A stretch of 62,982 nucleotides of DNA, filler included, from an uncultured Methanosarcinales archaeon (GCA_964398115.1; 7 parts of 7 records of this genome joined end to end with filler, not necessarily neighbours in it); one strand, 5' to 3'; positions 17,306-58,360 are shown, counted from the first letter of the whole stretch. Notes: generated by a model not told the origin, from the sequence alone. Made by a program: numbers and translations.

Positions 17306-17307
17306 TT

Positions 17308-20622: not shown

Positions 20623-20624
20623 TT

Positions 20625-28607: not shown

Positions 28608-28657
28608 TCAACCACTAGCCTGGCGAAGAAATGCTTTCTTTTGAATATGTTAAAAAG

Positions 28658-29890: not shown

Positions 29891-29899
29891 CTTGATTAC

Positions 29900-42363: not shown

Positions 42364-42364
42364 T

Positions 42365-42577
42365 TTAGAGATTTCCTTCTTGAGCAACTCCAGCGATAGC
42401 GTCTTTCAACTTCGCCATGTGCTTTTCACAATCTTGTCTTATTTCCTCGTACATTTCTTGACAAGCAGGATGTCCTGTTTCTTCCGCGTCCTGCTGGGCG
42501 TGTTTTTCACAATACCAAGCTATCTGACTTAGTTTGTGAAGAAGTTTAATCTTGGTATAATTACAGTTGTCTAACAT
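42365..42577 (-). CDS. Small ferritin-like helical protein, paralog 1
   Basis: MLDNCNYTKIKLL...WY..KHA..DA..HP.C.EMY.E; GAGGTGG SD. Confidence 0.6.
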   Translation of the reverse strand: MLDNCNYTKIKLLHKLSQIAWYCEKHAQQDAEETGHPACQEMYEEIRQDCEKHMAKLKDAIAGVAQEGNL

Positions 42578-42638
42578 AAACCAACCACCTCTTCTACGCT
42601 TATTTACGTTAAATCAAGTATAAAAGGGTTTCGGCTTT

Positions 42639-43709
42639 TCAGAAACTCTCTTTTAATTTATCTATGATTTCAAACGGGTCGCTGCTTACGACACTGCTAT
42701 CTGCAAATAATTCCATCGCGCCGATGTCACCTGTTTTTTCCGATAAAGAACCTCTGTCTATAATCCTAGCTATTACAGGGAAAGACTCCCAACCCTTTTG
42801 AGGAACTAAAGGAGGCATTCCAATGGCTACTGTAAAACTATGAACACCGAAGTCATCCCGCAAGCACGCGAGAGAGTTGTAAAGGCTGTCAGCAAAAGAC
42901 TTATTTGCACTTTCAGAAACTAGCAAGATTTCTTTTTCTTTTTTAGGTGTGAGATGAGCCATGACTTTCACACCGTTTTTTTCAAATCCTAAATTCAAGC
43001 TTTCATGTATTTGGTATAAATCTTGGAAATAAGTAGTCCCGTAGTTAGTTATGTAATCTTGTCTGACATGATTTAATCTTTCAAAGTATGGATAATGGGA
43101 ATCGCTTGTTAACGTAAGTTGCATGTGTCCGTGTATGATACTTGCCGCGCTTTTCCAAAGGCAATGCCAGAAGACATATGGAAAAACAGCATCTGAATCT
43201 TCTTCATGACTTTTCTCTAACCACTTATTAGCGGTTTGGATGTAATCTCGGACATGTTCCAGATCAAAATCAAGAGGGTCGTGATTATCGGAAATAATCA
43301 ACCCGTGATGATGATCATATTTCGCTACGTTACTGGCAGTAACGCAATGATCTCCTTCAATTCTTCCGAAACTATCTTCCGGAGTCATCTCCTTTGCATT
43401 ACAGAAGGGGCCGCCTTGACTATCTTCAATTTCACTTTTTAGATCACTGTCAGACTTGACTTTAGGACGCATGCTTCGTAATTGGTTGAACATGGAAGCT
43501 TCCTGAGTTAATTTATTGTTAACCCGAACTATCTTTTGATTTTCTACATCTTCTACTGGCCCAAAAGTGTCTTTCACCCAATCTTTCATCTCATCAGGTA
43601 TTTTCAACTTACCCTCATTTACTGAAACGCTGTAGAAACGATGGAATAATTCTTTTTGTGAATCTTCTAACTCAGAAACTGTTTGGTTTAATTCAAGTAT
43701 TGAGGACAT
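42639..43709 (-). CDS. GalT/HIT-superfamily sugar-phosphate nucleotidyltransferase
   Basis: RP, GPFC, SNVAKY, AASIIHGHMQ (HxHxQ). Confidence 0.75.
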   Translation of the reverse strand: MSSILELNQTVSELEDSQKELFHRFYSVSVNEGKLKIPDEMKDWVKDTFGPVEDVENQKIVRVNNKLTQEASMFNQLRSMRPKVKSDSDLKSEIEDSQGGPFCNAKEMTPEDSFGRIEGDHCVTASNVAKYDHHHGLIISDNHDPLDFDLEHVRDYIQTANKWLEKSHEEDSDAVFPYVFWHCLWKSAASIIHGHMQLTLTSDSHYPYFERLNHVRQDYITNYGTTYFQDLYQIHESLNLGFEKNGVKVMAHLTPKKEKEILLVSESANKSFADSLYNSLACLRDDFGVHSFTVAIGMPPLVPQKGWESFPVIARIIDRGSLSEKTGDIGAMELFADSSVVSSDPFEIIDKLKESF

Positions 43710-43809
43710 GTGTATGTTAGTGTAATTACTATCCCTATTTAATACTTTTTGAATATTTTACGCTTTTATCAGAGTTATTTATATAAGGTATGAAAACTTC
43801 CTAACCTGT

Positions 43810-45006
43810 ATGAGTATAAGAACTATTGAAACTAGACTGGTTGAACTACCGGTATTACGAACGCAAGAAGAATCATCTGCCAGTGTTAAAGACTTGATTG
43901 AATCTAATTCAAGATTGTATAATTACGCTCAAAGATCTGCTAGGCCTACTCTTGAAGATTATGTTTGGAGACCGTTCCGAAATAATTTGAAGAATCAGGC
44001 TTTACAACAAGCTTTGCAAAGTCAAGGACTAGGATTTGACGACACGGTAGAAGATGATTATACATTCGTCAGAGATGTGGAACCTTTCACGTTTGAAGTT
44101 GAAGTTTCGCCTTCTCCACGAGTTTCTTATGAAACGGTTACTTCTCGATTTCGCACTTGGCTTTCTAATATAGTTCGGGAGAAAGCTGAAGGTATAAAAA
44201 GAGATGAAGTTCGTACCATCGAGGGAATGCCTTATCCATCTGTGGATTATTTAATTCAACGTTTACAAAGCCTGAAGGAAGACAACACTACTTTACATAA
44301 TAGTCGTAGACTTTCAGTTTTGGATCAAGATGATGAAAGGTATCCTTTGGATGAAAGCATAGAAAGAATGAAAGTTGAGTTAGACCGGGAGAGGCATAGT
44401 GTATTAAACAAGGTAGGGGCAGAAGCTTATCAAGATGCTAGGAGTTTGCGTAAGAGAATAAGAGATTTTGAGAAAGCTGTTGAACGATGGGGTATGGACT
44501 TGCATGGTATAAAACCAGATGGTACGTTGGATGAAAACGTGGAAAGAATGTACGAGATGAGCAACGGAGCTTTTGTAAGATTTTTATTTTCTTCGAAAAC
44601 TTCTGTAAGGTATGGAGGTATATTCAAAGGATTAATGGAAGATAAGGAAAAGCATAAGCGAGAAGGTAAAGTTTCGAGAAGTACTGGTGATTTGTTAATT
44701 TTACAAAGACAAAGTTTTGAAGATTTCAGACGTAAATGGGGTCAGTACGGTTTAGATGTAAAAACTGAACTGAAGAGAGAAGGAGGACGGCAAGCCATAG
44801 TCAGTATTAAGAGGTTTAAAGAAGTTGATGATAGAAGAAGTGTTGAAGACAGTTTTGATTATAACTTGTATAGACTGGATGATCGAGTATTTGTTAACAG
44901 CAAGGATGTTCTCGAAAGATATCAAGAGTTGAAAGAGCAAAACACTACGAGGAATAAACCCGAGTTCCAATTATCTTTTTTCCCAGAGAAACCTGAGAAC
45001 CTTTAG
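43810..45006 (+). CDS. Hypothetical protein
   Basis: 398-aa ORF, TATA-like TTTATATAA upstream. Confidence 0.7.
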   Translation: MSIRTIETRLVELPVLRTQEESSASVKDLIESNSRLYNYAQRSARPTLEDYVWRPFRNNLKNQALQQALQSQGLGFDDTVEDDYTFVRDVEPFTFEVEVSPSPRVSYETVTSRFRTWLSNIVREKAEGIKRDEVRTIEGMPYPSVDYLIQRLQSLKEDNTTLHNSRRLSVLDQDDERYPLDESIERMKVELDRERHSVLNKVGAEAYQDARSLRKRIRDFEKAVERWGMDLHGIKPDGTLDENVERMYEMSNGAFVRFLFSSKTSVRYGGIFKGLMEDKEKHKREGKVSRSTGDLLILQRQSFEDFRRKWGQYGLDVKTELKREGGRQAIVSIKRFKEVDDRRSVEDSFDYNLYRLDDRVFVNSKDVLERYQELKEQNTTRNKPEFQLSFFPEKPENL

Positions 45007-45071
45007 TTATTAAACAATAACCTTTATATATACTTATCACCCCTTCTTTTTCGTTAAGGGGTGAAGGTATT

Positions 45072-46070
45072 TTGCAAGTTATAATTCCAGTTGCGGGTAA
45101 AGGAACACGTATGAGACCTCATACGCATACTACTCCGAAGCCGTTGCTTCACGTAGCAGGTAAGCCAGTTATTGATTACATATTAGATGATTTGGAAGAA
45201 TTAGACTTTGTTTCTTCAATCGTTTTCATCACAGGTCATTTAGGAGATAAATTTAAGGAGCACGTGACGGAAAATTATGATTTTGAAATGCATTTTGCTG
45301 AGCAAAAAACTTTAGATGGTAGTTCTGGCGCTGTGAAACTAGCAGAGCCGTTTATTGAAGAAGATGTTCTCGTAATATTTGCCGATACAATTTTCGATGT
45401 TGATCTTTCTGATATTGAAGACTGTGAAGTTGATGGAATGATTTGGGGTAAGAAAGTTGAGGATTATCAACGATTTGGTATTATGATAAAAGATGACGAA
45501 GGATTTTTGAAGGATTTGAAAGAAAAACCAGACAAGCCTTATACGAGATTAGCGAATATTGGGATGTATTATGTGAAAGATTACGAGATGATGTATGACT
45601 GCATTCATGAACAGTACGAAAAAGATATGAAGAGTAAAGGAGAATACAACTTTCCTGAAGTGCTAGGGATGATGGCACAAAGAGGGAAGAAGTTTGAAAT
45701 AGCTAAGGTGCAAGGATGGTATGATGCGGGAAAGCCAAAAACAGTTCTTTCAAGTCAACGAGAATTGCTTAAAGAAAGGCACAGCGTAGGACATAGTAAA
45801 AATAGTAATATTAACAAGCCCGTTTATATAGAAGATGGTGCTCAAGTAAGAAACTCTGTTATAGGACCAAACGTTAGTGTTGCTGAAGGCGCCTTGGTAG
45901 AGAATTGTGTTATTGAAGACTCTGTAATTGGTAGCGATGCAGAAGTTAAAGACTGTAGGCTTTCAAGAAGTCTTATTGGAGATCATGCTTTGGTCGAAGG
46001 GGTGAGCGGCCAAGTTAATATAAGCGATCACTCCGAGGTAGTCGTCGGAGACTATGAGAATAATTCATAG
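45072..46070 (+). CDS. Sugar-phosphate nucleotidyltransferase with left-handed beta-helix C-terminus
   Basis: PVAGKGTRMRPHT..PKPLL; WYDAG; hexapeptide repeats. Confidence 0.9.
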   Translation: MQVIIPVAGKGTRMRPHTHTTPKPLLHVAGKPVIDYILDDLEELDFVSSIVFITGHLGDKFKEHVTENYDFEMHFAEQKTLDGSSGAVKLAEPFIEEDVLVIFADTIFDVDLSDIEDCEVDGMIWGKKVEDYQRFGIMIKDDEGFLKDLKEKPDKPYTRLANIGMYYVKDYEMMYDCIHEQYEKDMKSKGEYNFPEVLGMMAQRGKKFEIAKVQGWYDAGKPKTVLSSQRELLKERHSVGHSKNSNINKPVYIEDGAQVRNSVIGPNVSVAEGALVENCVIEDSVIGSDAEVKDCRLSRSLIGDHALVEGVSGQVNISDHSEVVVGDYENNS

Positions 46071-47880
46071 CGGAGAAAAAGAAGGTGAGGGCAAGGGTTC
46101 AATCCTGTTAAGTGATAGAAGCGGAGGTTACCTCTGGCTTCCGAACGAAGATGTTAATAGAAGTAATTATCAAGGATGGTACACATTTGATTATGAAAAC
46201 TGGAGTTTATACAAAACGATAGAAAACATTTACATAGAAGATAAGGAAGTTAACACAGTTCATAATAAATTTTCTCACGTAGATCGAGATTCCGGTCCTG
46301 TAACAGAAAGGTTCTACTTAGATGAAAAAGCGCTTTTGTACGAGACTCACAATTACGATGGATTTGTAAGCGTAGATTTTGATTTTAGACACGTTTACGA
46401 TTTCGACAAGGATGGACGCATTTATGAAATAAAACCTCGCGAAGGAGGTTTGTTGATAGTGCGTTATAAAAAGTACAGTGATCGAGCTTTGCAAGAATTA
46501 GAACATGAAAGGTATATGGCTATTAAGAATGTGAAGGATTATTGGATGAGTGGAGACTGGCAGCCACGATGCTATGATTATGATAAAGAAAGGAATTCGA
46601 AATGTGAATTTTTCATCTATGGAACTCTTAAATTGAAGGTGAGTGGTGATGATAAACTCGTTTTCGCCACAGGTAAAAGTGAAGAAGAAGCGGTAGAAAA
46701 GACTAACTCGGTCTGGCACAATAGTCAAAGATTCAAGGACGACTTGGATAGGAAATCAGAGAGGGAGGTGTGGAGTGACGACGCCGTTTTCAACACTGCT
46801 TCAAACTCGTTGTATTCATTACTAGTTGATTTGGAAAATGATGAAAGAGGGTCGGGAATCTTCGCTGGTTATCCATGGTTTTTCCAATTCTGGAGGAGAG
46901 ACGAACTTATATCATTGAAGGGTTTAATGCTCTTACATGAAGACGTTAAAGTAAAGAAACTTTTAATGAACCACCTTCACCGCATTAGAGAGGATGGTTG
47001 GTTTGACAATCGAAACGTAGAAAGTGATTTGGAAAGTGCGGATGCCACAGGATGGCTATTCACGAGATTCCATGACTTTATGAAAAGATTGGAAAACAAA
47101 GAAGGAGTTTATGATATGTTCATGAAGGAAGAACTTCACAAAATCATGAACCGATTAGATGAAGTCATTAATGCTACAAGAGAGTATCATGAAAACAACG
47201 GCTTTATAGTGAATGATAAGTTAGAAACTTGGATGGACACCTTCGTCGATGAAGACTTCAGAGAAGGTGCTAGGATTGAAATTCAAGCATTGCAACTGAG
47301 GATGTACGAGTTTGCCAAGTACTTGGCTGAAATGCTGGGTGAAGATGGTGAACGGTATGAAGGAATGATTGAAGAGCTTGCAAACAAAGTTCGTGAAAAC
47401 TTCTTCGATGGTGAGAAACTTGCTGATGGAGTAGTAGGTGGAGAAGTTGATTGGACTCAAAGACCTAATGTTTTCCTAGCTTGCTATGTGTATCCTGGAC
47501 TTTTCAGTGATGAGGAGTGGGAAAGAATATTTGATAACGCTTTAGAACATTTATGGCTTGACTGGGGAGGACTCGCTAGCATATCCAAAGATAATGAACT
47601 CTTTACTGAGGAATATACGGGTGAGACTAACGAGAGCTATCATAGAGGAGACAGTTGGTATTGGATTAATAATATTGCAGCGATGTGTATGAAGCGTTTA
47701 AACGAAGAAAAATACAAAGACAAAATCGATAAAATTACGGAAGCGAGTAAAGAAGAAATGTTGTTCCATGGTGCTCTTGGGCATTGTTCAGAAGTTAGTA
47801 GTGCGAAGAGAAGAGAAAGTAAGGGATGTGTGGCGCAGGCTTGGAGCGCTGCTACACTTCTTGAACTTTTGAACAGTTAA
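46054..47880 (+). CDS. Amylo-alpha-1,6-glucosidase (glycogen debranching enzyme, GH133-like)
   Basis: AGYPWFFQFWRRDELIS, SADATGW, TWMD, RPN, YHRGDSW, QAWS. Confidence 0.9.
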   Translation: MRIIHSGEKEGEGKGSILLSDRSGGYLWLPNEDVNRSNYQGWYTFDYENWSLYKTIENIYIEDKEVNTVHNKFSHVDRDSGPVTERFYLDEKALLYETHNYDGFVSVDFDFRHVYDFDKDGRIYEIKPREGGLLIVRYKKYSDRALQELEHERYMAIKNVKDYWMSGDWQPRCYDYDKERNSKCEFFIYGTLKLKVSGDDKLVFATGKSEEEAVEKTNSVWHNSQRFKDDLDRKSEREVWSDDAVFNTASNSLYSLLVDLENDERGSGIFAGYPWFFQFWRRDELISLKGLMLLHEDVKVKKLLMNHLHRIREDGWFDNRNVESDLESADATGWLFTRFHDFMKRLENKEGVYDMFMKEELHKIMNRLDEVINATREYHENNGFIVNDKLETWMDTFVDEDFREGARIEIQALQLRMYEFAKYLAEMLGEDGERYEGMIEELANKVRENFFDGEKLADGVVGGEVDWTQRPNVFLACYVYPGLFSDEEWERIFDNALEHLWLDWGGLASISKDNELFTEEYTGETNESYHRGDSWYWINNIAAMCMKRLNEEKYKDKIDKITEASKEEMLFHGALGHCSEVSSAKRRESKGCVAQAWSAATLLELLNS

Positions 47881-47888
47881 TTTTATCA

Positions 47889-48761
47889 ATGATTTTTTCT
47901 CTAGAAATATGTATGGGGGTTTTACCAGAAGCGTATGAAGAGTGTTTGCCTGAAAAGGATGAGATACCTAGTCCGGAGGAGCAAAAGAGGTTAGCAGAGC
48001 TAGTCGAAGAGGGTGACTTGGAGGCGAGGGAAAGATTACTATGGGCGAATATGCGTTATGTTATTGATTCTGCAAGAGAATTTAAGGCTACTAGAGGAAG
48101 CAATTTGGATTTGAAAGGTTTGGTAACTTATGGAATTGACGGTCTCGTTCTAGGTCTTAACAAAATTGAAGAAGGCAAGTATGACAGTGAAAGAGGTAAT
48201 GTGCTTAACTTTTTAGATAATTGGATTGAAAATAAGTTTTACGAATATAGGAGATCTGGTCATACGTTTCAATTTAAGTCTTTACGCCATCGTTTAAAGA
48301 GAGATGTGCAACGTGTGTCTGAGGAACTTCAAGAGAAGGGTTATAGTGAATTAACAGCTGATGAATTGGCAAGAAGGAGAATATTGCAGAATAGGAAAAG
48401 AGTAAGGCGGTCAAATTTTTAATTGTGGGAGGCTAATGAGAGTGTAGAAAGTCTTGATGATACTTTACCTGATAGCTCTACTACTTTGCGTGAAGTTAAA
48501 GGAGAAGAATATTTGGATAATGTTGTTTACGATAACATGGCAAGTGACTTTGTTCTTTCTGTAATACAGAATGGTGTTTTAACGGATAAGGAGGAAACAG
48601 TTCTTTTAAGATATTATGGCTTTGAAGGTGAAGAGGATAGTTTGCGTGATCTTGCACAATCTTTGGATATGTGTACAGAAGGGGTTAGGCAAGTTAGGTT
48701 GAGAGCTGAACGTAAGTTGAAAGAAGCTTACGGTGATGAATTAAAAACTTTCATAGGGTGA
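47889..48761 (+). pseudogene. Sigma-70-family (RpoD/SigB-like) factor interrupted by in-frame TAA at 48420-48422
   Basis: Region 1.2/2: EEQKRLA..GDLEARERLLWANMRYV..AREF, GIDGL..KYDSERG..F..WI; region 3: LTADELA, SLDD; region 4: LTDKEETVLLRYYG..SLRDLAQSL...EGVRQV...AERKLK, same frame after the stop. Confidence 0.7.
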
Positions 48762-49758
48762 ATGATTTTTCTTCTGTGTAGAATCTTAGCATGGTTATTA
48801 ATAAGCCGAGGATGAGAGGTCCGAGTATTATCCCGGAGAATCCGAATACTGATAGTCCTCCAAGTACTCCGACTATTATCACGACAGGGTGTATTTGAGC
48901 TTTTTCACTTATCAATTTCGGTTTTAAAACGTTATCGATGTTCATTATTAACACCACGCCGTAGATTAGTATTCCTATCCCTGCTACGTAATTGGCTTGT
49001 GCGATTTCTATCAAACCTGCAGGTACCCATATTAGTGGAGTTCCAATGACTGGTAGGAAGGAAACTATTATCATTATGAATCCCCAAAACACCGGGTTTG
49101 GAAGTCCAAATATTAGGAAGCCGATTCCTCCAACTGCTCCTTGTACTATTGCGGTTAAGACTTGGCCATAAAGTACGGCATGACTTACTTTATGGATGTC
49201 CTTCATTAACTTGTCTCTGTGTTTTGGTTTCAATGGTATGTGGTCTTCTATCGTTTTGTACAATTCTTTCCCATCTTTGAAACCGTAGTATATGACGAAG
49301 AATAATATGAATAATCCTAGAACTAGTTGTGGTAACGAGCTTATTATTCCAGAAGCGCTGTCAACTACGAAATTGCTTAGCCGGTTTATTAAGTCACGGG
49401 CTATTTCATTCACTTGTTCTTCAGGGATTCCAAATCCTGCAAGAAAGTCGCTTACGTTGTCTACAACTCCTCCTTGCACCATACCGATTGCTCCGCTGGC
49501 TTGACTTACCAGTGTTTTTGTGATGAAGAAACTTGGGATTATCAGGACTAAGAGTATTATTACTATCATAACTCCGGAGGCTAGTGCGTCGTTAGTTATT
49601 TTAGAATTGACGGTTTCGAAAATAGGATACATTAAGTATGTGAGGATTATTCCCATGGCGAGGTATGCAAGGAAGGGTTTTACTATTATGAAAGTTAGAT
49701 AAGATAATACAAGGACGAGGCCTATGAAGAAGTATTTGGTTAAAGTGTCTTCATCCAT
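48751..49758 (-). CDS. AI-2E family transporter
   Basis: Multi-TM; IDNVLKPKLI, IHPVVIIVGVLGG..FGFSGIILGP. Confidence 0.9.
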   Translation of the reverse strand: MDEDTLTKYFFIGLVLVLSYLTFIIVKPFLAYLAMGIILTYLMYPIFETVNSKITNDALASGVMIVIILLVLIIPSFFITKTLVSQASGAIGMVQGGVVDNVSDFLAGFGIPEEQVNEIARDLINRLSNFVVDSASGIISSLPQLVLGLFILFFVIYYGFKDGKELYKTIEDHIPLKPKHRDKLMKDIHKVSHAVLYGQVLTAIVQGAVGGIGFLIFGLPNPVFWGFIMIIVSFLPVIGTPLIWVPAGLIEIAQANYVAGIGILIYGVVLIMNIDNVLKPKLISEKAQIHPVVIIVGVLGGLSVFGFSGIILGPLILGLLITMLRFYTEEKSFTL

Positions 49759-49839
49759 TATTTAAATTATTAACGTTTTACGTTATTTAAAGTTTGCGAG
49801 AACAAAATAATTATTGTTTATATTGAAAATAAATGGGTA

Positions 49840-49850
49840 AATTATATAAA
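49840..49850 (+). promoter_or_regulatory. Archaeal TATA-like element of the tRNA gene
   Basis: AATTATATAAA about 30 nt upstream of the tRNA. Confidence 0.45.
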
Positions 49851-49877
49851 CTCAACATATCTCCTCACAAATAATAA

Positions 49878-49952
49878 GCCTCTGTAGCTCAGCCCGGCTA
49901 GAGCAGCTCCCTTGTAAGGAGCAGGTCGAGGGTTCAAATCCCTCCGGGGGCT
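49878..49952 (+). tRNA. tRNA-Thr(UGU)
   Basis: Cloverleaf: GCCTCTG/CGGGGGC acceptor stem, CTTGTAA anticodon loop, GGTTCAAATCC T arm; discriminator T; no encoded CCA. Confidence 0.95.
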
Positions 49953-50083
49953 TATTTTTCTTGACGACCAAATCAGGGGTTTCNNNNNNNNNNNNNNNNN
50001 NNNNNNNNNNNNNNNNNNNNNNNNNNNTTAATTAATTAANNNNNNNNNNNNNNNNNNNNNNNNNNNNNNNNNNNNNNNNNNNN

Positions 50084-50421
50084 TGCCAGTAGGTTGTGAA
50101 GGAACAGTTGGTGCGTGGGTGGAAGATGAGAAGAGTTTGCTCGCGGCTTTGTTGTTGATGAAGCGTGGTTGTGATGTGATTCCTTATGGAGATGATGTTG
50201 GTGTAGAAATTTTAGAGAAGTTTGGTTGCAGTTTTGACTTTAGAGAGAGTGATGATATTTCGGATGTTGAAGGTTTTGACGTTAAAGCTTTGGTGGTGAA
50301 TGACACCCTTAAAAGATTTAAACGATACGATGTTTCTATGCCTGTACTAAGGCCTCTCGTTGGATTGACTGAAGACGAAATAAAGGAGAGATTGGAGGAT
50401 TATCGTGAAAGTTTATGTTGA
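50084..50421 (+). CDS. ThiI-like protein C-terminal part (5' partial, degenerate)
   Basis: PVG..G, SLLAALLLMKRG, PVLRPLVG; next to a sulfur-carrier gene. Confidence 0.6.
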
Positions 50422-50599
50422 AAGATCGGATGAAAGTATTGAGTTAAGTTTTGAAGGAACAGCGAAGGAGTTAATGGATGAGTTAGATGTTAATCCAGAA
50501 GCTGTTCTTATAGTTAGGAATGGGGATGTCGTGACGGAAGATGCGGAGTTGAGTGATGATGACGAAGTCGAATTTAGAAGCATTGTCAGTGGAGGGTGA
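50405..50599 (+). CDS. ThiS/MoaD ubiquitin-like sulfur carrier (SAMP)
   Basis: 64 aa, RNGDVV, C-terminal SGG. Confidence 0.9.
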   Translation: MKVYVERSDESIELSFEGTAKELMDELDVNPEAVLIVRNGDVVTEDAELSDDDEVEFRSIVSGG

Positions 50600-51323
50600 A
50601 GGTGTTTCTGAAAGTGTTGTAACTTCAGATCTGGTTTTGAAGCTTCAAGAATGGATTTCTGATAACGATTTGGTTATGGAAGATTCTAACGGTCGTGTTT
50701 ATGAAAATGTTGTATTGGATGATTTTGAAGGTGGCGAGGATTATTTCTATATTCGGGGTGTTTACGATGGTGTAGAAAAGAGGGGTGCGGTTTTGGTCGG
50801 TGATAAGAAGCCGGTGGTTGAGAAGTTTCAGGATGAGTTAAAGACTGGTTTCTACGTGGATCAGGGGAGGGAGAGAGTTTTGGATGAAGGGTTTCCTCCT
50901 AAGGAATTTGCGGTTTATAGAGATACGAGAGTGGAAGAGTTGTCTGATCTTGTTCAATCTCGGTTGTTGAGAGTGGAAGAGGATTTGTCTTTGGATGAGG
51001 TTTGTTCTAGGATTGAGGATGTTGCCGATCGTCGTGATAAGAAAATCGAAGCTCATATGAGGGTGGGTGAAGAGAGTTATACTTTGCATGCGAGTAATCC
51101 TTTGGTTTTGAAGGATGTTAGTTTTGAAAGTGAAGTTTTTACTTTGACTTTTAGCGGTCAGCGTGCTAATCCTAGTTGGCGTGTTGAGTTATGTAGGGAT
51201 CCGAGAGTTGCGTTTTTTGAGTTGAGGGATGGTTTTTATTTGAGTAAGAAGTTTAGGGATAAGGATGATAGGTATGAAGGTATTTATTTAGTTAAGGATG
51301 AGCGTGACATCGTTGGGGGTTAG
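50553..51323 (+). CDS. Acidic hypothetical protein (start uncertain)
   Basis: Long ORF after the SAMP gene. Confidence 0.55.
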   Translation: MMMTKSNLEALSVEGEGVSESVVTSDLVLKLQEWISDNDLVMEDSNGRVYENVVLDDFEGGEDYFYIRGVYDGVEKRGAVLVGDKKPVVEKFQDELKTGFYVDQGRERVLDEGFPPKEFAVYRDTRVEELSDLVQSRLLRVEEDLSLDEVCSRIEDVADRRDKKIEAHMRVGEESYTLHASNPLVLKDVSFESEVFTLTFSGQRANPSWRVELCRDPRVAFFELRDGFYLSKKFRDKDDRYEGIYLVKDERDIVGG

Positions 51324-51640
51324 CTTTGATAGTTTACTTTTGGTATTCTTTTCCAGTCGTAGCCTTGTTCTGTTTTAATGTTGCAGTATGTGTGTTCGGG
51401 CCTGCCGAAGCCTTCCCAGTAGATGACTCCGTTTATTTCATCTGGTAGGTCTTGGTCGTTTTGTATGGCGTATATGTTTGATTCTGTCTTGACGGGGATT
51501 CCTTCTTCACAAGAACTTTCTTCCATTAGTGTGGCTTCTATAGTTCTCCAGTGGTCTGAGCATCCGACGGTTAGCGCTGTTATCAGAGCGGTTAGGGTTG
51601 CTGTCTTTTTCACTGTAATTTTGAATACGCTTTTTTGTCT
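51320..51640 (-). CDS. Putative lipoprotein (start uncertain)
   Basis: KKTATLTALITALTVGC lipobox-like motif. Confidence 0.45.
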   Translation of the reverse strand, partial: RQKSVFKITVKKTATLTALITALTVGCSDHWRTIEATLMEESSCEEGIPVKTESNIYAIQNDQDLPDEINGVIYWEGFGRPEHTYCNIKTEQGYDWKRIPKVNYQS

Positions 51641-51648
51641 TTTTATTT

Positions 51649-52035
51649 TTAGGGGTGTAGTTGTTTTACTTTGTGTTTGATTTGTTTGTACGCTTCTCTT
51701 GGTGTAATCATAGTTGTGATGGGATCGTTCACGTTCCATAGTTGTATGTTGTATGCTTCGTCATAGTTTTGTTCTAAGTGTCTTTTGTGGTGTGGTTTCA
51801 TAGCTATTATTTTGTCGGCGCGTCTGATTGCTTCTTTATTTACTTGTTCTGGATTTGGCTTGACGTATTGTAGTGCGTCGTCTTTTTCTAAGAGTTTTTT
51901 AGCGTTTTCAGCTATCTTTGAAGCTTTGCTTGTGCCTCTGCTTTCTACTTCTAGGTTGGGTTTGTATTTTCTGGTGAGTGCTTCTGCGGTGGGGCTTCGG
52001 AAGCTGTTGCCGGTGCAGATGTATAGTATTCGCAT
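51649..52035 (-). CDS. LMW-PTP/arsenate reductase family protein
   Basis: ILYICTGNSFRSPTAE P-loop; WNVNDP. Confidence 0.88.
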   Translation of the reverse strand: MRILYICTGNSFRSPTAEALTRKYKPNLEVESRGTSKASKIAENAKKLLEKDDALQYVKPNPEQVNKEAIRRADKIIAMKPHHKRHLEQNYDEAYNIQLWNVNDPITTMITPREAYKQIKHKVKQLHP

Positions 52036-52297
52036 AACTCTTTATATTGGTAGAACAAAGTTATAATTGTTTTTCTTTGTAGCAGTAGAAGTTAATTATT
52101 TGAGTTGATCTATCATGTTGATGTCTGTAATGCTTTTCGGGTCCATGCCTTTGATTCTTTTCTCTTCCTGTTTGATCTTATTGATGATTCCTGGATTTTC
52201 TAATACTTCTTCCGTAGCGTCTTCCATTTCCAAGTCTTTCATTTCCATACTTTTTCTTTATTGTTTCTTGTTTTATAAGAGTGGTGGAAAAACTTAA

Positions 52298-52510
52298 ATG
52301 TGTGTGGTTGGTAAGTTGAGATTGATGTTTGGAAGCAGTTTAGAGAATGAAAGCATGCGTGCCTTGAAAGAAGAAGTAGAAGAACTCTTACAAGAATATG
52401 ATGAGGTTATGTCAAAAGTAAAAGATGAGAAAGAAGAGAACAGAGTGCGGCGGGAAGTCGCTAAACAACTAGAGAAGATTTCTGACGATTTCAAAACTGG
52501 CCGGATTTAA
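52298..52510 (+). CDS. Small coiled-coil hypothetical protein
   Basis: Short charged ORF. Confidence 0.35.
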   Translation: MCVVGKLRLMFGSSLENESMRALKEEVEELLQEYDEVMSKVKDEKEENRVRREVAKQLEKISDDFKTGRI

Positions 52511-52566
52511 AAGCAGTGGACATTTGTGTGTAAAACTTATAACTAACCCATCCTTTTCTAGATTTT

Positions 52567-54003
52567 ATGAAGTTGATTTCGAAAAGCACGTACATGAAAG
52601 GTTTGCAATGTCCACGTCTTCTTTGGTTTAAAGTTAACAATCCTGAAGCCATCCCGGATTATGATGAGGCTACTAAGGCGAGGTTTAAGCAGGGAAGGCA
52701 GATTGGAGAAGTAGCGCAGGAGCTTTTTCCTGAAGGAGAGTTGGTTAGTTTTGGAGATTTTAATAAGACGATTGAAGACACTGAAGAGTTGGTTGAAGAC
52801 AGGGTCACGGTTTTCGAGGCGAGTTTCAAAGCAGACGACTTGTATTGTAGGGTTGACATTTTAGAAAAAGTAGATGGTGGTTGGAACTTGATCGAGGTTA
52901 AAAGCAGTACTCGTGTTAAGGACCAGTATATTGAGGATGTCGCGTTTCAAAAGTATTGTTTGGATAAAGCCGGCGTTGACATTCAGGATTGTTACGTCAT
53001 GCATATCAATAATCAATATGTACGAAGTGGTGAGGTTGAGCCAAGAAAGTTGTTTGAGAAGGAAAGCGTTACTGAAGAGGTTGAGAATAAGCAGGAGGAG
53101 GTTGAGAATAATTTGGATAATATGAGGCGTGTGATTAAAATTCCGGATGCTCCTAACGTTCCTGTTGGTCCGCATCGTACCACTCCTTACGATTGTCCAT
53201 TGGAGGAGAAGTGTTGTAGTTCCATGCCGGAGCATGACGTTACCGAACTGTTTTATATTGGAGATGACGCTTGGGACTTGGCGGATGACGGGATTTTCAA
53301 AATTAAGGATATTCCTGAAGATTATAGGTTGAGTCCTAATCAACAGACTCAGTACGAGGCGGTGGTGAATGAAGAACCACAAATAGATCAGGATAAAATC
53401 AAAGAATTTTTAGAAGGTTTTGAGGAACCTATTTATTTCTTGGATTTTGAGGCTTTCATGACTGCTATTCCTTTGTTTGATGGGGTTAGGCCTTATCAGA
53501 CGATTCCTTTCCAGTTTTCTCTACATAAACTTGAGGATGGTGAGGTTGAACATTATGAGTACTTATACAAAGGAGAGGGTGATCCTAGGCCGGAGTTGGC
53601 GGAAGAGTTGCAAGTCATTGGTGAGAGGGGTAGTATTGTAGCGTTTAACACGCGTTTTGAAAAGCGGATGTTAGATCAGTTAAGTCAGGCTTCACGGTAT
53701 AGTTTTGACAGTTTGAAAAGTCGTTTTGTTGATTTGGCTACGCCTTTCAAGAACTTTTGGTATTATGATCCGGAGCAGCATGGGAGTTATAGTTTGAAGA
53801 ACGTCCTTCCTTGTATTGTTGGTAGTGATTATGATGGTTTGGAGATTGATGATGGTGACTTGGCTCAGAGAGAATTTGTCCGGGTGAATTACAACGATGC
53901 GAGTGATGAAGAAAGGGTTAGGGAGCAATTGCTTAAGTATTGTGAGCAAGACACTTATAGTTTGATTGAAATCATGCAAGAATTGAAGAGAATTGTTAGT
54001 TAG
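52567..54003 (+). CDS. DUF2779-containing RecB/Cas4-like nuclease with RNase H-like domain
   Basis: ISKS..GLQCPR.LW; RVDIL...IEVKSST; FLDFE; IPFQFSLH; SLKNVLP; YCEQDT. Confidence 0.85.
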   Translation: MKLISKSTYMKGLQCPRLLWFKVNNPEAIPDYDEATKARFKQGRQIGEVAQELFPEGELVSFGDFNKTIEDTEELVEDRVTVFEASFKADDLYCRVDILEKVDGGWNLIEVKSSTRVKDQYIEDVAFQKYCLDKAGVDIQDCYVMHINNQYVRSGEVEPRKLFEKESVTEEVENKQEEVENNLDNMRRVIKIPDAPNVPVGPHRTTPYDCPLEEKCCSSMPEHDVTELFYIGDDAWDLADDGIFKIKDIPEDYRLSPNQQTQYEAVVNEEPQIDQDKIKEFLEGFEEPIYFLDFEAFMTAIPLFDGVRPYQTIPFQFSLHKLEDGEVEHYEYLYKGEGDPRPELAEELQVIGERGSIVAFNTRFEKRMLDQLSQASRYSFDSLKSRFVDLATPFKNFWYYDPEQHGSYSLKNVLPCIVGSDYDGLEIDDGDLAQREFVRVNYNDASDEERVREQLLKYCEQDTYSLIEIMQELKRIVS

Positions 54004-54859
54004 ATCCGTTGGTTTTTTCTGCTAGTGTTTCTCTAACTATTGGGTATTCTAAAAGGTTTTCTTGCATGTTTGTTCTGGCTCTGTTTAGTCTGGATTTTAT
54101 AGTTCCTGATTTAACGCCAGTGATTTCAGAGATTTCTTTGTAACTTTTTCCTTCAAGTTCTCGTAGTTCTAAAACTGTTCGGTGGTGTGGTTTTAATTCT
54201 TGGAGAGATTCTTCTACTGCTTGCTTGAGTCGGTCGTCTTCTACTATGTGGTTAGCTAGTGGTTGGGTTGATCTTTCCGGTCCGGCGATGAAATCTATTT
54301 CTCTTATGTGTCCTTGTTCGAATTCTTCTTCTATAAGGTAGTTGACTGAGTCTACTGGGTTTCTGGCTTCGTTTCTTTTCTCGTTTTTTGACAGGTTTTC
54401 TGCTGCTTTTAGTATGTAACTTCCTAGCTGTCTCCAACTTTTTGTCGGGTCTAGTGTGTGGTATCTTTTGAATATTCGGAATAATGCTTTTTGTGTGACG
54501 TCTTCAGCTTTCTCTTGGGTTTTGAGTTCTTCTCTTGCTTTCTTTTTTAGTTTGTTTCTGAATGCTTTTGCGGTTATTTCGAATTCAGGTAGTTCGTCGT
54601 TTATGATTGACTCTATGAATTGTTGTTCGTATTTGTTTCTGTCTTCGAAGTCGTCTGGTTTGCCTTCCATTAGGTGTTTGTACATTTCTTGTTCGTATTC
54701 TTGTGTTAGGATTTGTGTGAGTTGGGTTCTGGCTTTTGTCATTCTTTTGTTGATTGTGTCTTGGCTTACGTTTTCTTTTTCTGCTATGAGGTCGTGTGGC
54801 ATTCTTGCTTTTTCTCGGTATTGTAGTGTTTTGGCTAGTGTGTGGTTTTGTTTTTGCAA
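53996..54859 (-). CDS. ECF (RpoE-like) sigma-70-family protein with extra N-terminal HTH
   Basis: sigma2: AEDVTQKALFRIFKRYHTLD..SYILKAAEN; sigma4: LKPHHRTVLELRELEGKSYKEISEITGVKSGTIKSRLNRAR; N-terminal LIAEKENVSQDTINKRMTKAR. Confidence 0.8.
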   Translation of the reverse strand: MQKQNHTLAKTLQYREKARMPHDLIAEKENVSQDTINKRMTKARTQLTQILTQEYEQEMYKHLMEGKPDDFEDRNKYEQQFIESIINDELPEFEITAKAFRNKLKKKAREELKTQEKAEDVTQKALFRIFKRYHTLDPTKSWRQLGSYILKAAENLSKNEKRNEARNPVDSVNYLIEEEFEQGHIREIDFIAGPERSTQPLANHIVEDDRLKQAVEESLQELKPHHRTVLELRELEGKSYKEISEITGVKSGTIKSRLNRARTNMQENLLEYPIVRETLAEKTNGSN

Positions 54860-54893
54860 AAACTTATAAATTACAAATGTTTACATTCGTAAT

Positions 54894-55397
54894 ATGTTTG
54901 TTGTTGATGCATCCACACTGATACTTTTGGCCAAAGCCACCGCTTTGCGCAAACTAGCCGAGGAAAAAGAATTAGTTATAACGGAAAAAGTAAGGGAAGA
55001 AGTTGTTGAAAGCGATACCTTCGACGCCAAGCTCATACAAAAGCTCATAAGGGAAGAATTGATAGAAGTGGAAGAAGTTCACACAGATCAAGACTTAATT
55101 GAGGAATTCAGGCTGGATGAAGGCGAAGCATCCACTTATGAATTATATGACGACCACGCTTTGATAGCCACTGATGACAAGCAACTGATCAAACTATGCA
55201 GGTTAGAAGAGATACCTTTCGCATCCTCCATGCCGCTGCTGGTGAGAATGTATGAAAAAGACTTGCTCGGCAAGGCAGAAACGCTGTCAAAGCTGGAAAG
55301 ATTAAATGAACAAGGCTGGTATTCAGAAAATTTTTACGAAAGAATGAAGGAAGAGGTGAAAGATGATGAAGACGATGTCGATTCGGATGAATCCTGA
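54894..55397 (+). CDS. PIN-domain toxin (DUF3368-like)
   Basis: VVDASTLI, LDEGEAS, IATDD. Confidence 0.85.
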   Translation: MFVVDASTLILLAKATALRKLAEEKELVITEKVREEVVESDTFDAKLIQKLIREELIEVEEVHTDQDLIEEFRLDEGEASTYELYDDHALIATDDKQLIKLCRLEEIPFASSMPLLVRMYEKDLLGKAETLSKLERLNEQGWYSENFYERMKEEVKDDEDDVDSDES

Positions 55398-55650
55398 AGG
55401 ACTTGACGAGTTTTCAAAGGTTTTGAGAGAGAACAGGTCAGAGGTAGTCAGAGAACTAGTTGAAGAAGGCAGGAAAAGGAAAGCAGTTAATCTGTTTAAA
55501 GAAGACAAGGTCAGTCTGGGCTTTGGCGCTAAATTGGCAGGCGTGACCATAACCGAGTTTCTAGACTTGTTAGAAGAACACGACGTGAAGTTAAACCTTG
55601 ATGAAAGAGATGCGGAAGAAGCTTTAGAAAACGTGAGAGAAAAGTGGTAG
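55363..55650 (+). CDS. UPF0175-family antitoxin
   Basis: RHH-like N-terminus (RSEVVREL); AVNLFKEDKVSLGFGAKLAG...EFLDLL. Confidence 0.8.
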   Translation: MMKTMSIRMNPEGLDEFSKVLRENRSEVVRELVEEGRKRKAVNLFKEDKVSLGFGAKLAGVTITEFLDLLEEHDVKLNLDERDAEEALENVREKW

Positions 55651-55791
55651 ATGTCAGCCAAAGGCTGATGGTTGCCAAATATAGTTTCGCAAGAATTAGT
55701 ATTCGAAAACAGAGTTTTTCGCAAATGATTGGTATGATGAAATAGTTGAAATAATAAAAGTTATGAAAGAAAGTCTCTTACTTTAAATGGT

Positions 55792-56277
55792 ATGGAGAAG
55801 AAAAAGTTGTATGGCGAAGAAGTATATGTGAAGGAAGGTGTTTATACACCTAACTATAATGTTCTCAAAGATAAGATATTTGTGGGGAATGATTTCCCTC
55901 GAGATTTAACTGATGAAGAAGCTGAAGCAGTTTTACTGCATGAAGCTTGGCACAAAAGTAGAGGAACATTTTATCGTTTAGGTTCTTTATCTCTTCTGTT
56001 TGTGAACGCGATCATCGCTTTCAAATTTGTCCTTACTTGGTATCATATCTTTCTTATCATACTAGCAGATTTGTCCATACTCATACCCTTTGCTAGGAGA
56101 GAAGAATATCTAGCCGATGAACACAGTATAAAAAAAGGCGGATCTACAGACGGTCTCATGACCGCCTTGAAAAAACTAGGGGAAGAAGATCGGCCAGTCT
56201 GGTACAAGCTTTATGGCAAAATCACTCACCCTACTGACGAAGATAGAAAAAAGAATTTAGAACAGAAAAACTTCTAA
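55792..56277 (+). CDS. M48 (HtpX-like) zinc metallopeptidase
   Basis: AVLLHEAWH, EYLAD, ALKKL, THP..DR. Confidence 0.8.
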   Translation: MEKKKLYGEEVYVKEGVYTPNYNVLKDKIFVGNDFPRDLTDEEAEAVLLHEAWHKSRGTFYRLGSLSLLFVNAIIAFKFVLTWYHIFLIILADLSILIPFARREEYLADEHSIKKGGSTDGLMTALKKLGEEDRPVWYKLYGKITHPTDEDRKKNLEQKNF

Positions 56278-56314
56278 AAAAATATTGAAAAATAGAAAGA
56301 AAAAAGAAATAGTG

Positions 56315-56365
56315 TTTAGCAACAAATCACAGAGCGATTTGAGTTTTGTGAGCTTCGCTCGCTGT
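56315..56365 (+). repeat. Partial copy of the inter-cassette hairpin repeat
   Basis: CAAATC-ACAGAGC-GATTTG hairpin, then GTGAGC-TTC-GCTCGC. Confidence 0.5.
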
Positions 56366-56414
56366 TTTCATTTTAGAACTAGATGATTTTCAGTTTTTTG
56401 AGTTGATTGAGGAG

Positions 56415-56609
56415 TTATTTTGAGATTGTTTTTATCTTTTTTTGTTTGAAGAACTTTGATGCTTTTTGTATTTCCACTCCTATTATGTCGTCGTTTTCGT
56501 CTAGTTCTAAGTTTATTCCTGGGATTATTTCTTCGAATTTGTCTTCTTTTCCTTCTTTTACGTTGATGTATATGAGGTTGTTTTCTTTGTCGTAGTGGTA
56601 TTTTTTCAT
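56415..56609 (-). CDS. DUF2283-family small protein
   Basis: YDKENNLIYI...GINLELDENDDIIGVEIQKAS. Confidence 0.8.
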   Translation of the reverse strand: MKKYHYDKENNLIYINVKEGKEDKFEEIIPGINLELDENDDIIGVEIQKASKFFKQKKIKTISK

Positions 56610-56653
56610 TTTTCTTTCCACCTCTTCCTTTCCAGGCGGTTGTTTATTTAGTT

Positions 56654-56986
56654 TTATTGTTTATTTTGTTCTTTTTTCTCATTTAATTGTTCTAATATGT
56701 TTTGTATTATGTCCCAGATTATTTCCAGGTCTAGTGAGTGGTATTTGTGGTAGGCTATGTTTCGGAAGTCTTTGATTTTTTGCCATGGTACTTCTTCGTG
56801 TTTTTCTTTCACGTTTTCTTGTAATTGGCTGACGGCTTCTCCTATGAGTCCTAGGTTCTATACGACTGCGTCTATTGTTTTATCGTCTTGTTTGAATTCT
56901 TCAAAAGTCGTGTCAGAAGTGTAGTCTTTGGCTTTTTCTATCGCTTGTTTTATGTCTTTCAGGTAGAGGTCAGATCTCCGCTTCAA
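56654..56986 (-). pseudogene. hepT: HepT-like (DUF86, HEPN) RNase toxin with premature TAG at 56858-56860
   Basis: Hand translation: YLKDIKQAIEK...DAVV*NLGLIGEA...VPWQKIKDFRNIAYHKYHSLDLEIIWD (Rx4H motif). Confidence 0.85.
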
Positions 56987-57269
56987 CTTGTCTGCCTCCG
57001 AGGATGCTGGGTTTTAGTTCTTCTCTTACTAGTCTTTTTTTGACAAGGTCTATTTCTTTGTTGAACAGGTTTTCTAAATAGTTTTTTAGGCCGGTGTAGT
57101 CGTCGAACAGTCCTCTTCCTTTTTTGAATTCTACTAGGAAGTCTAGGTCGCTGTCTTTTTCTGCGTGTCCGTTGGCGTGGCTTCCGAACAAGCTGATTTT
57201 TTCCACGCCGTAACTTTTAATTTCTTCCTTGTTATCCTCTATCTTTTTGATAACGTCTTCCGGTTTCAT
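56970..57269 (-). CDS. mntA: MntA minimal nucleotidyltransferase antitoxin
   Basis: LFGSHANG...DSDLDFLVEF; IDLV. Confidence 0.9.
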   Translation of the reverse strand: MKPEDVIKKIEDNKEEIKSYGVEKISLFGSHANGHAEKDSDLDFLVEFKKGRGLFDDYTGLKNYLENLFNKEIDLVKKRLVREELKPSILGGRQVEAEI

Positions 57270-57301
57270 ACTTGTAAAATATGTTTTAGAAGTATTTAAA
57301 A

Positions 57302-57430
57302 TTAACCTAGAAGATTTCGGAAATAATATTTGGTTTATATTTGAGAGGGAAAAGAGTTTCTTGGTAGCTATCGTCTTTGGCGATAGTTGTTGCGAGCTTC
57401 GCTCGTTTGCCGTAAATCAGGGATTTACTG
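57302..57430 (+). repeat. Inter-cassette repeat copy A (three hairpins)
   Basis: GTTTATAT..AGGGAAAAGAGTTTCTTGGTAGCTATC..GCGATAGTTGTT; GCGAGC-TTC-GCTCG; GTAAATC-AGG-GATTTAC. Confidence 0.7.
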
Positions 57431-57438
57431 TTTTTAAT

Positions 57439-57765
57439 TCATAATTGGAGAAGGTTTTTCATTTGTTTGTCTAACTTGTCCATTTGAGTTTTTCCTAGTT
57501 TTCCGACTTGTTTTTCCAGTCTTTCTTTGTCGATTGCTCTTGTTTGGAATGCGAGGACTATGCTGGGTTTGGACAGGCCGTTTTGTTTTGAGGGTTTGAC
57601 TTTGAAGGTGTGTGGGAAGTTGTTTGCTTGTTGTTTTGTTGTGAATGGTGTTGCCATTACTATGTTGACGTGTGGTTTGGACATTAGGGTTACGGGCCTT
57701 TTCCCGGCTTGTTCATGTGTGTTGGTAGACGGTAGCGTGACGTACCATACTTGTCCTTTTTTCAT
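57439..57765 (-). CDS. mazF: MazF/PemK toxin
   Basis: KGQVWYV, HEQAGKRP, NGLSKPS, QTRAIDKERL. Confidence 0.9.
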   Translation of the reverse strand: MKKGQVWYVTLPSTNTHEQAGKRPVTLMSKPHVNIVMATPFTTKQQANNFPHTFKVKPSKQNGLSKPSIVLAFQTRAIDKERLEKQVGKLGKTQMDKLDKQMKNLLQL

Positions 57766-57965
57766 AGGCTTTTCTCAAACTTGACGAGTGCTTCGTCGCT
57801 TAGTTTCTCCCATTGGTCGAATTCTTTTTTGATTTCTACGTATTCGTTAACGTCGTTTAAGAAGTGGAGGATTGCTTTGTCGACTAGTTCTTCTTCGTCT
57901 ATTCCTAGCTTTCTTGACGCTTCACTGATCTTTTTTTGAGTGTCTTCGGGTATGTCGATTTCCAT
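57762..57965 (-). CDS. Putative antitoxin of the MazF toxin
   Basis: 67 aa, acidic, ATGA overlap with the toxin, WEKLSDEAL tail. Confidence 0.7.
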   Translation of the reverse strand: MEIDIPEDTQKKISEASRKLGIDEEELVDKAILHFLNDVNEYVEIKKEFDQWEKLSDEALVKFEKSL

Positions 57966-57996
57966 GTTTGAGGTTAGGCTTTGATTGTTAATAAAG

Positions 57997-58122
57997 TTAA
58001 TCTAAAGATTTTCGGAAAGTATTTATTGTTTATATTGGAAAGGGAAAAAAGTTTCTTAGTAGCTATCACTTCGCGATAGTTGTTTCGCTTCGCGAGGTTA
58101 GGTGAAAACAAGCTTTTCGCAA
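57997..58122 (+). repeat. Inter-cassette repeat copy B (three hairpins)
   Basis: GTTTATAT..AGGGAAAAAAGTTTCTTAGTAGCTATC..GCGATAGTTGTT; TCGC-TTC-GCGA; GTGAAAA-CAAGC-TTTTCGC. Confidence 0.7.
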
Positions 58123-58208
58123 GTCTTTTGATATAGGGCTTTTAATTTGGAAATTTTACGGTTTTAGGAGATTAGGGTTTTATACTCTTTCTTTGTTCTA
58201 TTTTTGGT

Positions 58209-58360
58209 ATGGCGGAGAGGTATTATCTGGATACGAGCACGTGGAGGGATTACTATGAGGACAGGTACGGTCCGGGCGGGAGGCCTTTGGGAGGTTATGC
58301 TGCGGATGTCTTCATCAAGATAATGAGGGAGGAAAGCAAGTTGCTGTATTCTGATTTGAT
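58209..58360 (+). CDS. PIN-domain protein (3' partial)
   Basis: YYLDTSTWRDYYEDR...LLYSDL. Confidence 0.65.

Follow-up and report, generated by a model that had tools for sequence, protein, structure and literature searches.

The window analysed here is a stretch of 62,982 nucleotides, made up of seven contigs of one archaeal genome joined by N spacers, and it carries two genes of the sigma-70 family: gene A (47889..48761, plus strand), an RpoS/SigA-like gene of 290 codons on contig C31, and gene B (53996..54802, minus strand), a gene of the extracytoplasmic function (ECF) type on contig C32, whose product is 268 residues long when counted from an ATG at 54802. We conclude that both are genuine sigma-70-family genes of bacterial ancestry, and that they are part of a wide and already reported habit of this DPANN phylum, which keeps bacterial sigma genes. 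In our favoured reading, gene B would be a regulator that acts through its sigma-4 domain, gene A would probably be dispensable, and a third sigma gene, located outside the window on contig C12, would alone still have the look of a working sigma; taken as a whole, this reading seems to us about evenly poised between being right and being wrong.

Conservation and fold of genes A and B

In searches with the CL0123-type sigma-70 domain models, PF04545 or PF08281 for the sigma-4 helix-turn-helix and PF04542 for sigma-2, as the first-pass annotation of this DNA had proposed, gene B exceeds the Pfam cut-offs of both Sigma70_r4_2 (71.7 bits vs 25.7) and Sigma70_r2 (28.4 bits vs 24), with no match to region 3, and it reaches 82.1 bits on TIGR02937, the sigma70-ECF superfamily (cut-off 42.9). 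Its residues 77-279 align to AlgU/RpoE structures, and its predicted structure (pLDDT 74 overall, above 90 in sigma-4 and 74-87 in sigma-2) matches ECF sigma structures. Gene B resembles ECF group 4 (RpoE, AlgU; PDB 1or7, 8z6g) in having sigma-2 and sigma-4 without sigma-3, and in sequence and predicted fold it matches AlgU, RpoE, SigE and SigW. It differs from that group in that its host has no bacterial polymerase, that no anti-sigma gene is adjacent, that its sigma-2 domain is eroded, and that the protein carries an N-terminal extension of about 57 residues, which is unique to it. A second sigma-4-like unit within this extension was considered and rejected: the matches are weak (13-15 bits), and the model there is one long helix. 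Scans of the neighbouring genes with Pfam, NCBIfam and PADLOC revealed no anti-sigma gene beside gene B; not all ECF groups have a co-encoded anti-sigma factor.

The two domains of gene B are conserved to very different degrees. Its nearest family, from which it probably descends, is a tight group of ECF sigmas of roughly 212 residues, 34-42% identical to it, a few of which are named Gemmatimonadales. Among columns with 90% conservation or more in this family, which was picked by its likeness to gene B itself, gene B keeps 23 of 72 in sigma-2 (32%) vs 31 of 42 in sigma-4 (74%; Fisher p 1.8e-5), and its sigma-4 domain is 60% identical to the family consensus. In sigma-2, helix 2.1 has been rewritten from 'RLLNFIYRT' to 'KLKKKAREE', and a three-residue insertion ahead of the conserved Trp shifts that residue; the region 2.3/2.4 pattern 'YA.WWIRQ' is not retained. 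Because neutral decay would not spare one domain in this way, sigma-4 is probably under selection, with sigma-2 relaxed or retargeted. That is, the helix-turn-helix of sigma-4 would have been kept nearly intact while the part that grips the polymerase and opens DNA eroded, and gene B would most likely be an accessory, sequence-specific DNA-binding regulator rather than an initiation factor.

Gene A passes the Pfam cut-off of Sigma70_r4 alone, and marginally (24.5 bits vs 24.1), and its residues 1-177 match no Pfam family, Sigma70_r2 (PF04542) being undetected. Using phmmer, residues 27-280 align to RpoS structures (best 7vf9_F, E 8.7e-14) and also to RpoH and SigA, and the protein is 25-28% identical, over 90% of its length, to sigmas with the arrangement r1.2-r2-r3-r4. 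An AlphaFold model of residues 1-177 has a pLDDT of 84.9, rising above 90 over residues 30-120, and matches chains of sigma-S, sigma-32 and SigA; against the region 1.2-2 fragment of RpoS (5h6x_B), the TM-score normalised to the target is 0.75, with an rmsd of 2.2 A. Gene A thus resembles the group 2/3 factors RpoS, RpoH and SigA (PDB 7vf9, 5ipl, 8hkc) in its end-to-end alignment, and differs from them in that the RpoS equivalog model is missed, Pfam region 2 goes undetected and key promoter-reading residues are replaced. On that equivalog model (NCBIfam TIGR02394) it scores 49.2 bits, far under the cut-off of 378.7, and it is therefore not an RpoS ortholog.

Unlike in gene B, the conserved columns of gene A are lost from both domains (18 of 40 kept in r2, 13 of 30 in r4). 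Its 'FLDNWIEN' replaces the family's 'YAVWWIRQ'; residues for melting, for reading the -10 and -35 elements and in region 4.2 are substituted, the WW dyad and the region-4.2 arginines being gone. As far as its sequence indicates, gene A is a full-length sigma-70 relative in which erosion has been uniform. The first-pass annotation had described both proteins as pairing a diverged sigma-2 core with a well-kept sigma-4 domain, and had suggested that they may be a repurposed family of DNA-binding regulators. The domain contrast and the idea of a repurposed regulator fit gene B; the contrast does not carry over to gene A, whose sigma-4 is no better kept than its sigma-2, and the two genes have no family in common.

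The frame of gene A contains in the window an in-frame TAA (48420..48422, plus strand) that the annotation had overlooked, and database records split the gene into two proteins, one of 177 and one of 112 residues. A contig of 838 bases (depth 7.2) from a public sediment-metagenome run, X1, has G at 48420 and reads GAA (Glu) at this codon; it also differs by one synonymous change and one Arg-to-Ser change. Contigs of a second such run, X2, do not cover gene A. An uninterrupted 290-codon allele therefore exists, here only in the X1 contig, and the TAA either belongs to a variant strain or is an error of a consensus built at low coverage. Thus, what looks like the stop of a pseudogene has an intact counterpart allele in an assembly of the same sediment, which is new here. 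Most likely gene A would be dispensable: it may be decaying, or retained under loose selection as a regulator.

As a separate observation, a database protein of 589 residues (P0258) matches the sigma-4 region of gene A in seven separate stretches and carries tandem sigma-4-like units.

The host and the assignment of the two contigs

The genome amounts to 1,002,954 bases in 67 contigs and is rated 91% complete and 0.64% contaminated. It encodes TBP, whose two repeats score 106 and 104 bits, and TFB, whose two cyclin repeats score 90 and 76 bits; among the control genomes, the TFB family matches only the 4 archaeal ones. The N-terminal domain of the large polymerase subunit, Rpb1_1, has exactly one match genome-wide, in an 866-residue frame that adjoins the Rpo2 gene and has the size of the split archaeal Rpo1N. 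No second, bacterial-type RNA polymerase that could partner a sigma factor was found in the genome, given this single Rpb1_1 match and 91% completeness. Given TBP, TFB and a single archaeal-type large subunit, we conclude that the host is an archaeon whose sole RNA polymerase is archaeal, as the first-pass annotation had presumed. The host may be labelled DPANN/Woesearchaeota-like, based on its genome size, on genomes of 0.5-2.1 Mb in the same phylum and on the literature.

Contigs C31 (window 41055-49983, 8.9 kb) and C32 (window 50084-58360, 8.3 kb) are short pieces of a bin fragmented into 67 contigs, and neither has a universal archaeal marker of its own, which would suit mis-binned bacterial DNA. 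Several lines of evidence point the other way. The comparison genome G423, from the same genus and 83% complete, has the AI-2E transporter gene and the tRNA-Thr gene together on one contig, as on C31, and also a piece of the glycogen-synthase gene. The Cas4/DUF2779 gene adjoining gene B on C32 also has an ortholog in G423; the other neighbours there are different, no sigma gene is among them, and near the ortholog lies an open reading frame (ORF) that looks by eye like an archaeal resolvase of the Hjc type. The tetranucleotide correlations with the five largest contigs (r of 0.948 for C31, 0.958 for C32 and 0.962 for C12) are normal for contigs of their size, and the depth of run X1 along C31 is even, at about 5-7.

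Third-codon-position composition leads to the same conclusion. The coding-strand GC3/AT3 skews of gene B are -0.67/+0.80, next to -0.70/+0.74 and -0.46/+0.87 for its minus-strand neighbours, and those of gene A are +0.58/-0.14, in line with its plus-strand neighbours. The G/T strand bias that the first-pass annotation had noted by eye, as common to both sigma genes and their surroundings, is thus borne out on both strands. Because this composition follows that of the neighbours, we consider the sigma genes to be long resident and fully ameliorated, in agreement with best non-self identities of 32% (A) and 42% (B), which speak against a recent, near-identical transfer. Binning of these contigs with a bacterium had been named as what would overturn the archaeal assignment; synteny with G423, tetranucleotide profile and strand bias all favour the archaeal genome, and mis-binning of the sigma contigs is unlikely.

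Throughout the window from 44000 to 58000, on C31 and C32, the third codon positions are extremely asymmetric (GC3 skew up to +0.73/-0.70, AT3 up to +0.87), and the plus strand is G/T-rich whichever direction the genes run.

Origins of the sigma genes and their distribution in the phylum

Sigma factors count as bacterial-only initiation factors, and their retention in this phylum, often with all functional motifs intact, is an exception to the divide between bacterial and archaeal transcription. Of the 401 phylum genomes sampled, 167 have a Sigma70_r2 match at E<=1e-3, and 162 of these score over the cut-off. The 167 include genomes of one and two contigs (G009, G161) as well as the unpublished genomes G243, G333 and G396; among the controls, 10 of 10 bacteria and 0 of 4 archaea have a match. 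A set of 52 sigma ORFs, drawn from the best-matching loci and hence biased to the best-conserved copies, has a consensus with the canonical primary-sigma sequence 'DLIQEGNIGLMKAVEKFDY.RGYKFSTYATWWIRQAI' of region 2 at high frequency and 'TRERIRQ' in region 4.2, and 16 long ones among them show r1.1/r1.2, r2, r3 and r4.

Against this background, genes A and B are both orphans, each specific to its lineage, and they occupy gene slots that vary. The best non-self match of gene A among 1.84 billion representatives has the above 32% identity and is not an ortholog (47 matches at E<=1e-10); among 151 genomes of the order, 31 match at all, at 24-29% identity, and G423 has no match. The genome of the best match itself (P0259) was sought among the 401 phylum genomes, where the highest identity is 37%. 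For gene B, 11 of the 401 phylum genomes match at E<=1e-5, the best at 30% identity, with no ortholog among them, and a sigma gene is absent from the locus of G423 that is orthologous to the gene B locus. In a tree of 97 RpoD-like rows, which has no independent bacterial outgroup, gene A sits on a branch of 2.38 and joins other long branches, and its position is therefore not to be trusted. The notion that A and B form one family must be abandoned, since they belong to different sigma groups and neither has an ortholog in G423 or in the 401 phylum genomes. Together with the C12 gene they have three different origins and do not make up one archaeal family, and none of the three is a recent near-identical transfer.

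The earlier suggestion of a little-described system was overstated, as sigma-70 genes in DPANN are already in print. In the available part of that report (Castelle 2021, PMC8204110), they occur mostly in Woesearchaeota, as family fam00359, in genomes that also have TBP and TFB, and mis-binning is excluded there via co-encoded genes; no nearby anti-sigma factor is described, and the mechanism is left open. Genes A and B are like fam00359 in being sigma-70 genes of a DPANN-type genome with TBP/TFB where mis-binning is unlikely, their membership of that cluster being putative; whereas fam00359, as far as that part goes, is one family, a single genome here has an RpoS-like, an ECF-type and an RpoD-type gene, two of which are orphans. 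Beyond PMC8204110, the only further item on archaeal sigma factors that came up in our literature search was the report, seen in excerpt, of rpoS-like genes in DPANN viruses (PMC12647753). A provirus origin, which that report had prompted, was considered and rejected: PHROGs searches around A, B and the C12 gene yielded neither capsid nor terminase nor integrase. What is new here is the contrast within one genome between one canonical copy, one sigma-4-only copy and one evenly eroded copy, and the three products are concrete proteins for binding and DNA-target assays.

A third sigma gene beside a GHKL ATPase

The third sigma gene, found by the whole-genome search, lies outside the window at about 22400-25600 of contig C12, together with a gene for a GHKL ATPase of 646 residues. 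Its 430-residue product has r1.2, r2 and r4, reaches 58.5 bits on r2, keeps 'YAVWWIRQ' and 'TRERIRQ' intact, and retains 44 of 61 conserved columns in r2 and 32 of 43 in r4. Judged from these motifs, only this protein still looks like a working sigma, and it would be the sole candidate for a polymerase-bound role. The contig, of 26.6 kb, also encodes a replication-factor-C (RFC)-type ATPase and a YGR210-type GTPase, which we take to be archaeal/eukaryal types. In the tree, the C12 sigma sits on a long branch (0.95, SH-aLRT 98) as sister to a group of 41 closely similar proteins from the database, among them several with RpoD/SigA names from Gemmatimonadota and related groups; of the 52 phylum sigmas, 43 fall elsewhere. 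A related-loci search with it returned three confirmed hits with bacterial titles, two at 34-35% identity and one short.

The sigma gene starts 5 bp downstream of the gene for the ATPase, which is MutL/MORC-like, and the two are translationally coupled. Homologs of the ATPase occur in 29 of the 401 phylum genomes. In each of the two closest, G396 and G241, a sigma-like gene lies immediately downstream; in G282 the pair occurs in reverse order, and in G161 and G197 the two genes are adjacent by coordinates. At 6 of the ten best loci, no sigma gene was found within 1.5 kb of the ATPase. The three downstream sigma-like proteins (C12, G241, G396) have in common an N-terminal domain, about 125 residues long and particular to this family. 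A recurrent candidate partner of this kind is new, whereas the literature, as far as the available part of PMC8204110 goes, has no anti-sigma factor for these archaea.

The closest library names for the C12 pair are MzaA (167 bits vs a cut-off of 800) and MzaB (28.5 bits vs 850) of the MZA anti-phage system (NF041931, NF041932; PDLC02203, PDLC02204), which we take to have a five-gene make-up. The likeness lies in the gene pair: next to the gene for a MutL-like GHKL ATPase is one for a sigma-like protein extended by an additional N-terminal domain, as on C12 and for the orthologs in G241 and G396. The C12 pair differs in that the gene order is reversed and that none of the other MZA components was matched among the scanned neighbours; because the scores are far below the cut-offs, we regard it as resembling MZA in parts and not as a member. 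Literature searches on MZA with sigma, and on sigma with Pacearchaeota, returned nothing relevant. A co-fold of region 1.2-2.4 of the C12 sigma, residues 150-265, with residues 1-360 of Rpo1N gave a score of 0.01 against a mark of 0.32 in a run without controls, and is evidence neither way.

Separately, a stand-alone frame of 62 residues at 6220-6348 of contig C6 passes the Sigma70_r4 cut-off (31.3 bits) and may be a solo sigma-4 helix-turn-helix protein.

Genomic surroundings of genes A and B

Gene A is the last gene of a glycogen-metabolism run, and it lies, as the first-pass annotation had it, between a glycogen debranching gene and an AI-2E transporter. The former (GDE_C, 46054..47880, plus strand, 147 bits) has its stop 8 bp ahead of gene A, and the two are probably co-transcribed. 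The AI-2E family transporter (48751..49758, minus strand, 172 bits) is convergent and overlaps gene A at its 3' end. A tRNA-Thr (TGT) without an encoded CCA (49877..49953, plus strand) follows 1116 bp past the end of gene A, in agreement with the earlier estimate of about 1.1 kb; a run of T comes after it, and a TTATATAA box (49842-49849, plus strand) lies about 31 nt upstream. As noted above, transporter and tRNA are syntenic in G423. The run itself, on the plus strand from 41102 to 47880, holds a glycogen synthase-like gene, an NTP-transferase gene, a 398-residue ORF without an assigned family and GDE_C, all within a genome of 1 Mb.

The reading frame of gene B is open up to a TTG at 54859. 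A TATA-like TTTATAAG, identified by eye (54863..54870, minus strand), lies about 65 nt upstream of the ATG at 54802, with just 4 nt between it and the TTG, and for this reason the ATG is the likelier start; the protein on record also begins there. The box favours an archaeal-type promoter for gene B, with the reservation that, at 39% G+C, such a box is likely to arise by chance. A Cas4/DUF2779-like nuclease gene (52567..54003, plus strand) converges on gene B, and the two share 8 bp. On the other side, divergent from it, a 167-residue ORF (54894..55397, plus strand) matches the PADLOC defence candidate PDC-S70 (41.8 bits) and has by eye a PIN-like N-terminus. Contig C32 further holds a gene for a ThiS/SAMP2-like small protein (50405..50599, plus strand), PemK/MazF, an NTP_transf_2 gene of the MNT type and a DUF2283 gene, and the earlier description of an ECF-like gene on a separate contig with SAMP and toxin-antitoxin genes was thus correct. 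Gene B would then be expressed from an archaeal promoter within a toxin-antitoxin and defence island.

Alternative explanations

Several points weigh against our favoured reading of the three genes. The sigma-2 domain of gene B still passes its Pfam cut-off (28.4 vs 24 bits) and has a fairly confident predicted fold; a residual or altered contact with the polymerase is therefore conceivable, and the gene's conservation was gauged on one donor-like family chosen by similarity to gene B. As for gene A, the pLDDT above 90 over residues 30-120 of the sigma-2 model disfavours free decay, and, at about 7x depth, its nonsense allele might stem from an erroneous consensus and not from a real polymorphism. 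The proposed regulator role of both genes is drawn from sequence and structural models, and the Woesearchaeota-like name of the host may be no more than a provisional label.

Both genes might instead be functionless relics of old transfers that are drifting to loss. The same-genus genome, and everything else that was searched, has no ortholog of either one, gene A has its in-frame stop in the window, and both are separated from their nearest matches by long branches or low identity. However, neutral decay would not spare the sigma-4 domain of gene B (74% vs 32% of columns, with the p value given above); apart from that stop, both frames run for 268-290 codons without interruption, although enough time has passed for full compositional amelioration; an intact allele of gene A exists; and both models fold with confidence. 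We consider this explanation unlikely, though deserving of serious thought.

Our favoured division of roles must also be set against true sigma function, in which the proteins, docked through sigma-2 on the clamp coiled-coil of Rpo1, would steer or modulate the start of transcription at promoters of bacterial type, e.g., those of bacterially derived genes. In the available part of one source (PMC3223566), this coiled-coil is described as a conserved site of attachment, used by bacterial sigma-70 and by the archaeal factors TFB, TFE and Spt4/5. Since the element that sigma-2 grips also serves TFE and Spt4/5 there, contact between a sigma factor and the archaeal polymerase is conceivable. The 52-ORF phylum consensus is canonical in regions 2 and 4.2, relatives retain r1.1, r1.2, r2, r3 and r4, and the C12 gene keeps most of its conserved columns. 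By contrast, A and B depart furthest from the canonical pattern, gene B with 32% of its conserved sigma-2 columns and gene A without the WW dyad and the region-4.2 arginines. Bacterial-type promoters are not enriched on C31, where sigma-70-type matches are at chance (26 vs 23.8 +/- 5.2 in shuffled sequences). In addition, the coiled-coil is nearly invariant in 30 phylum genomes, with or without a sigma match, and there is thus no sign of co-adaptation by the polymerase. For A and B we regard such a function as distinctly improbable. A broader proposal is that initiation in this phylum is hybrid: its sigmas would dock on the clamp coiled-coil, at the TFE/Spt5 site, and steer the polymerase to a subset of promoters, with the adjacent GHKL ATPase as partner or anti-sigma and with A and B as specialised, fast-evolving members. 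We offer this as a long shot.

A role for the sigma-like proteins outside general transcription, in which they would belong to accessory modules (defence or toxin-antitoxin) or regulate them, would account for the position of gene B amid PemK/MazF, the MNT-type nucleotidyltransferase, the Cas4-like nuclease and the ORF matching PDC-S70, and for the translational coupling of the C12 sigma to its ATPase, a pairing whose best library names are MzaA and MzaB and which recurs in G241, G396 (unpublished), G282, G161 and G197. Yet both Mza scores fall far short, the MzaA match spans the generic part of the sigma only, and no other MZA component is present among the scanned C12 neighbours; nor is gene A in a defence island, its setting being a metabolic operon, and no viral hallmark genes are nearby. 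This leaves such a role very doubtful for the set as a whole.

Finally, an artefact of mis-binned bacterial DNA, or the export of these proteins onto the polymerase of a bacterial partner, as the first-pass annotation had entertained, is extremely improbable in view of the synteny with G423 on both contigs, the common strand bias, normal tetranucleotide profile and even X1 depth, the sigma genes in phylum genomes of one and two contigs, the placement of the third sigma gene on a contig of 26.6 kb that also has RFC-type and YGR210-type genes, and, as regards export, N-termini that by eye (no predictor was run) are not signal-peptide-like and scanned neighbours that include no secretion gene.

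Further observations

Contigs C28 and C29 (window 11664-31363) are compositional outliers within the genome, with tetranucleotide r of 0.84 and 0.77 and a G+C content of 0.43-0.46 vs about 0.39. They encode very large proteins that are without a Pfam match (674, 500, 575 and 1104 residues) or have surface-type domains of the beta-helix, PKD and PEGA kinds.

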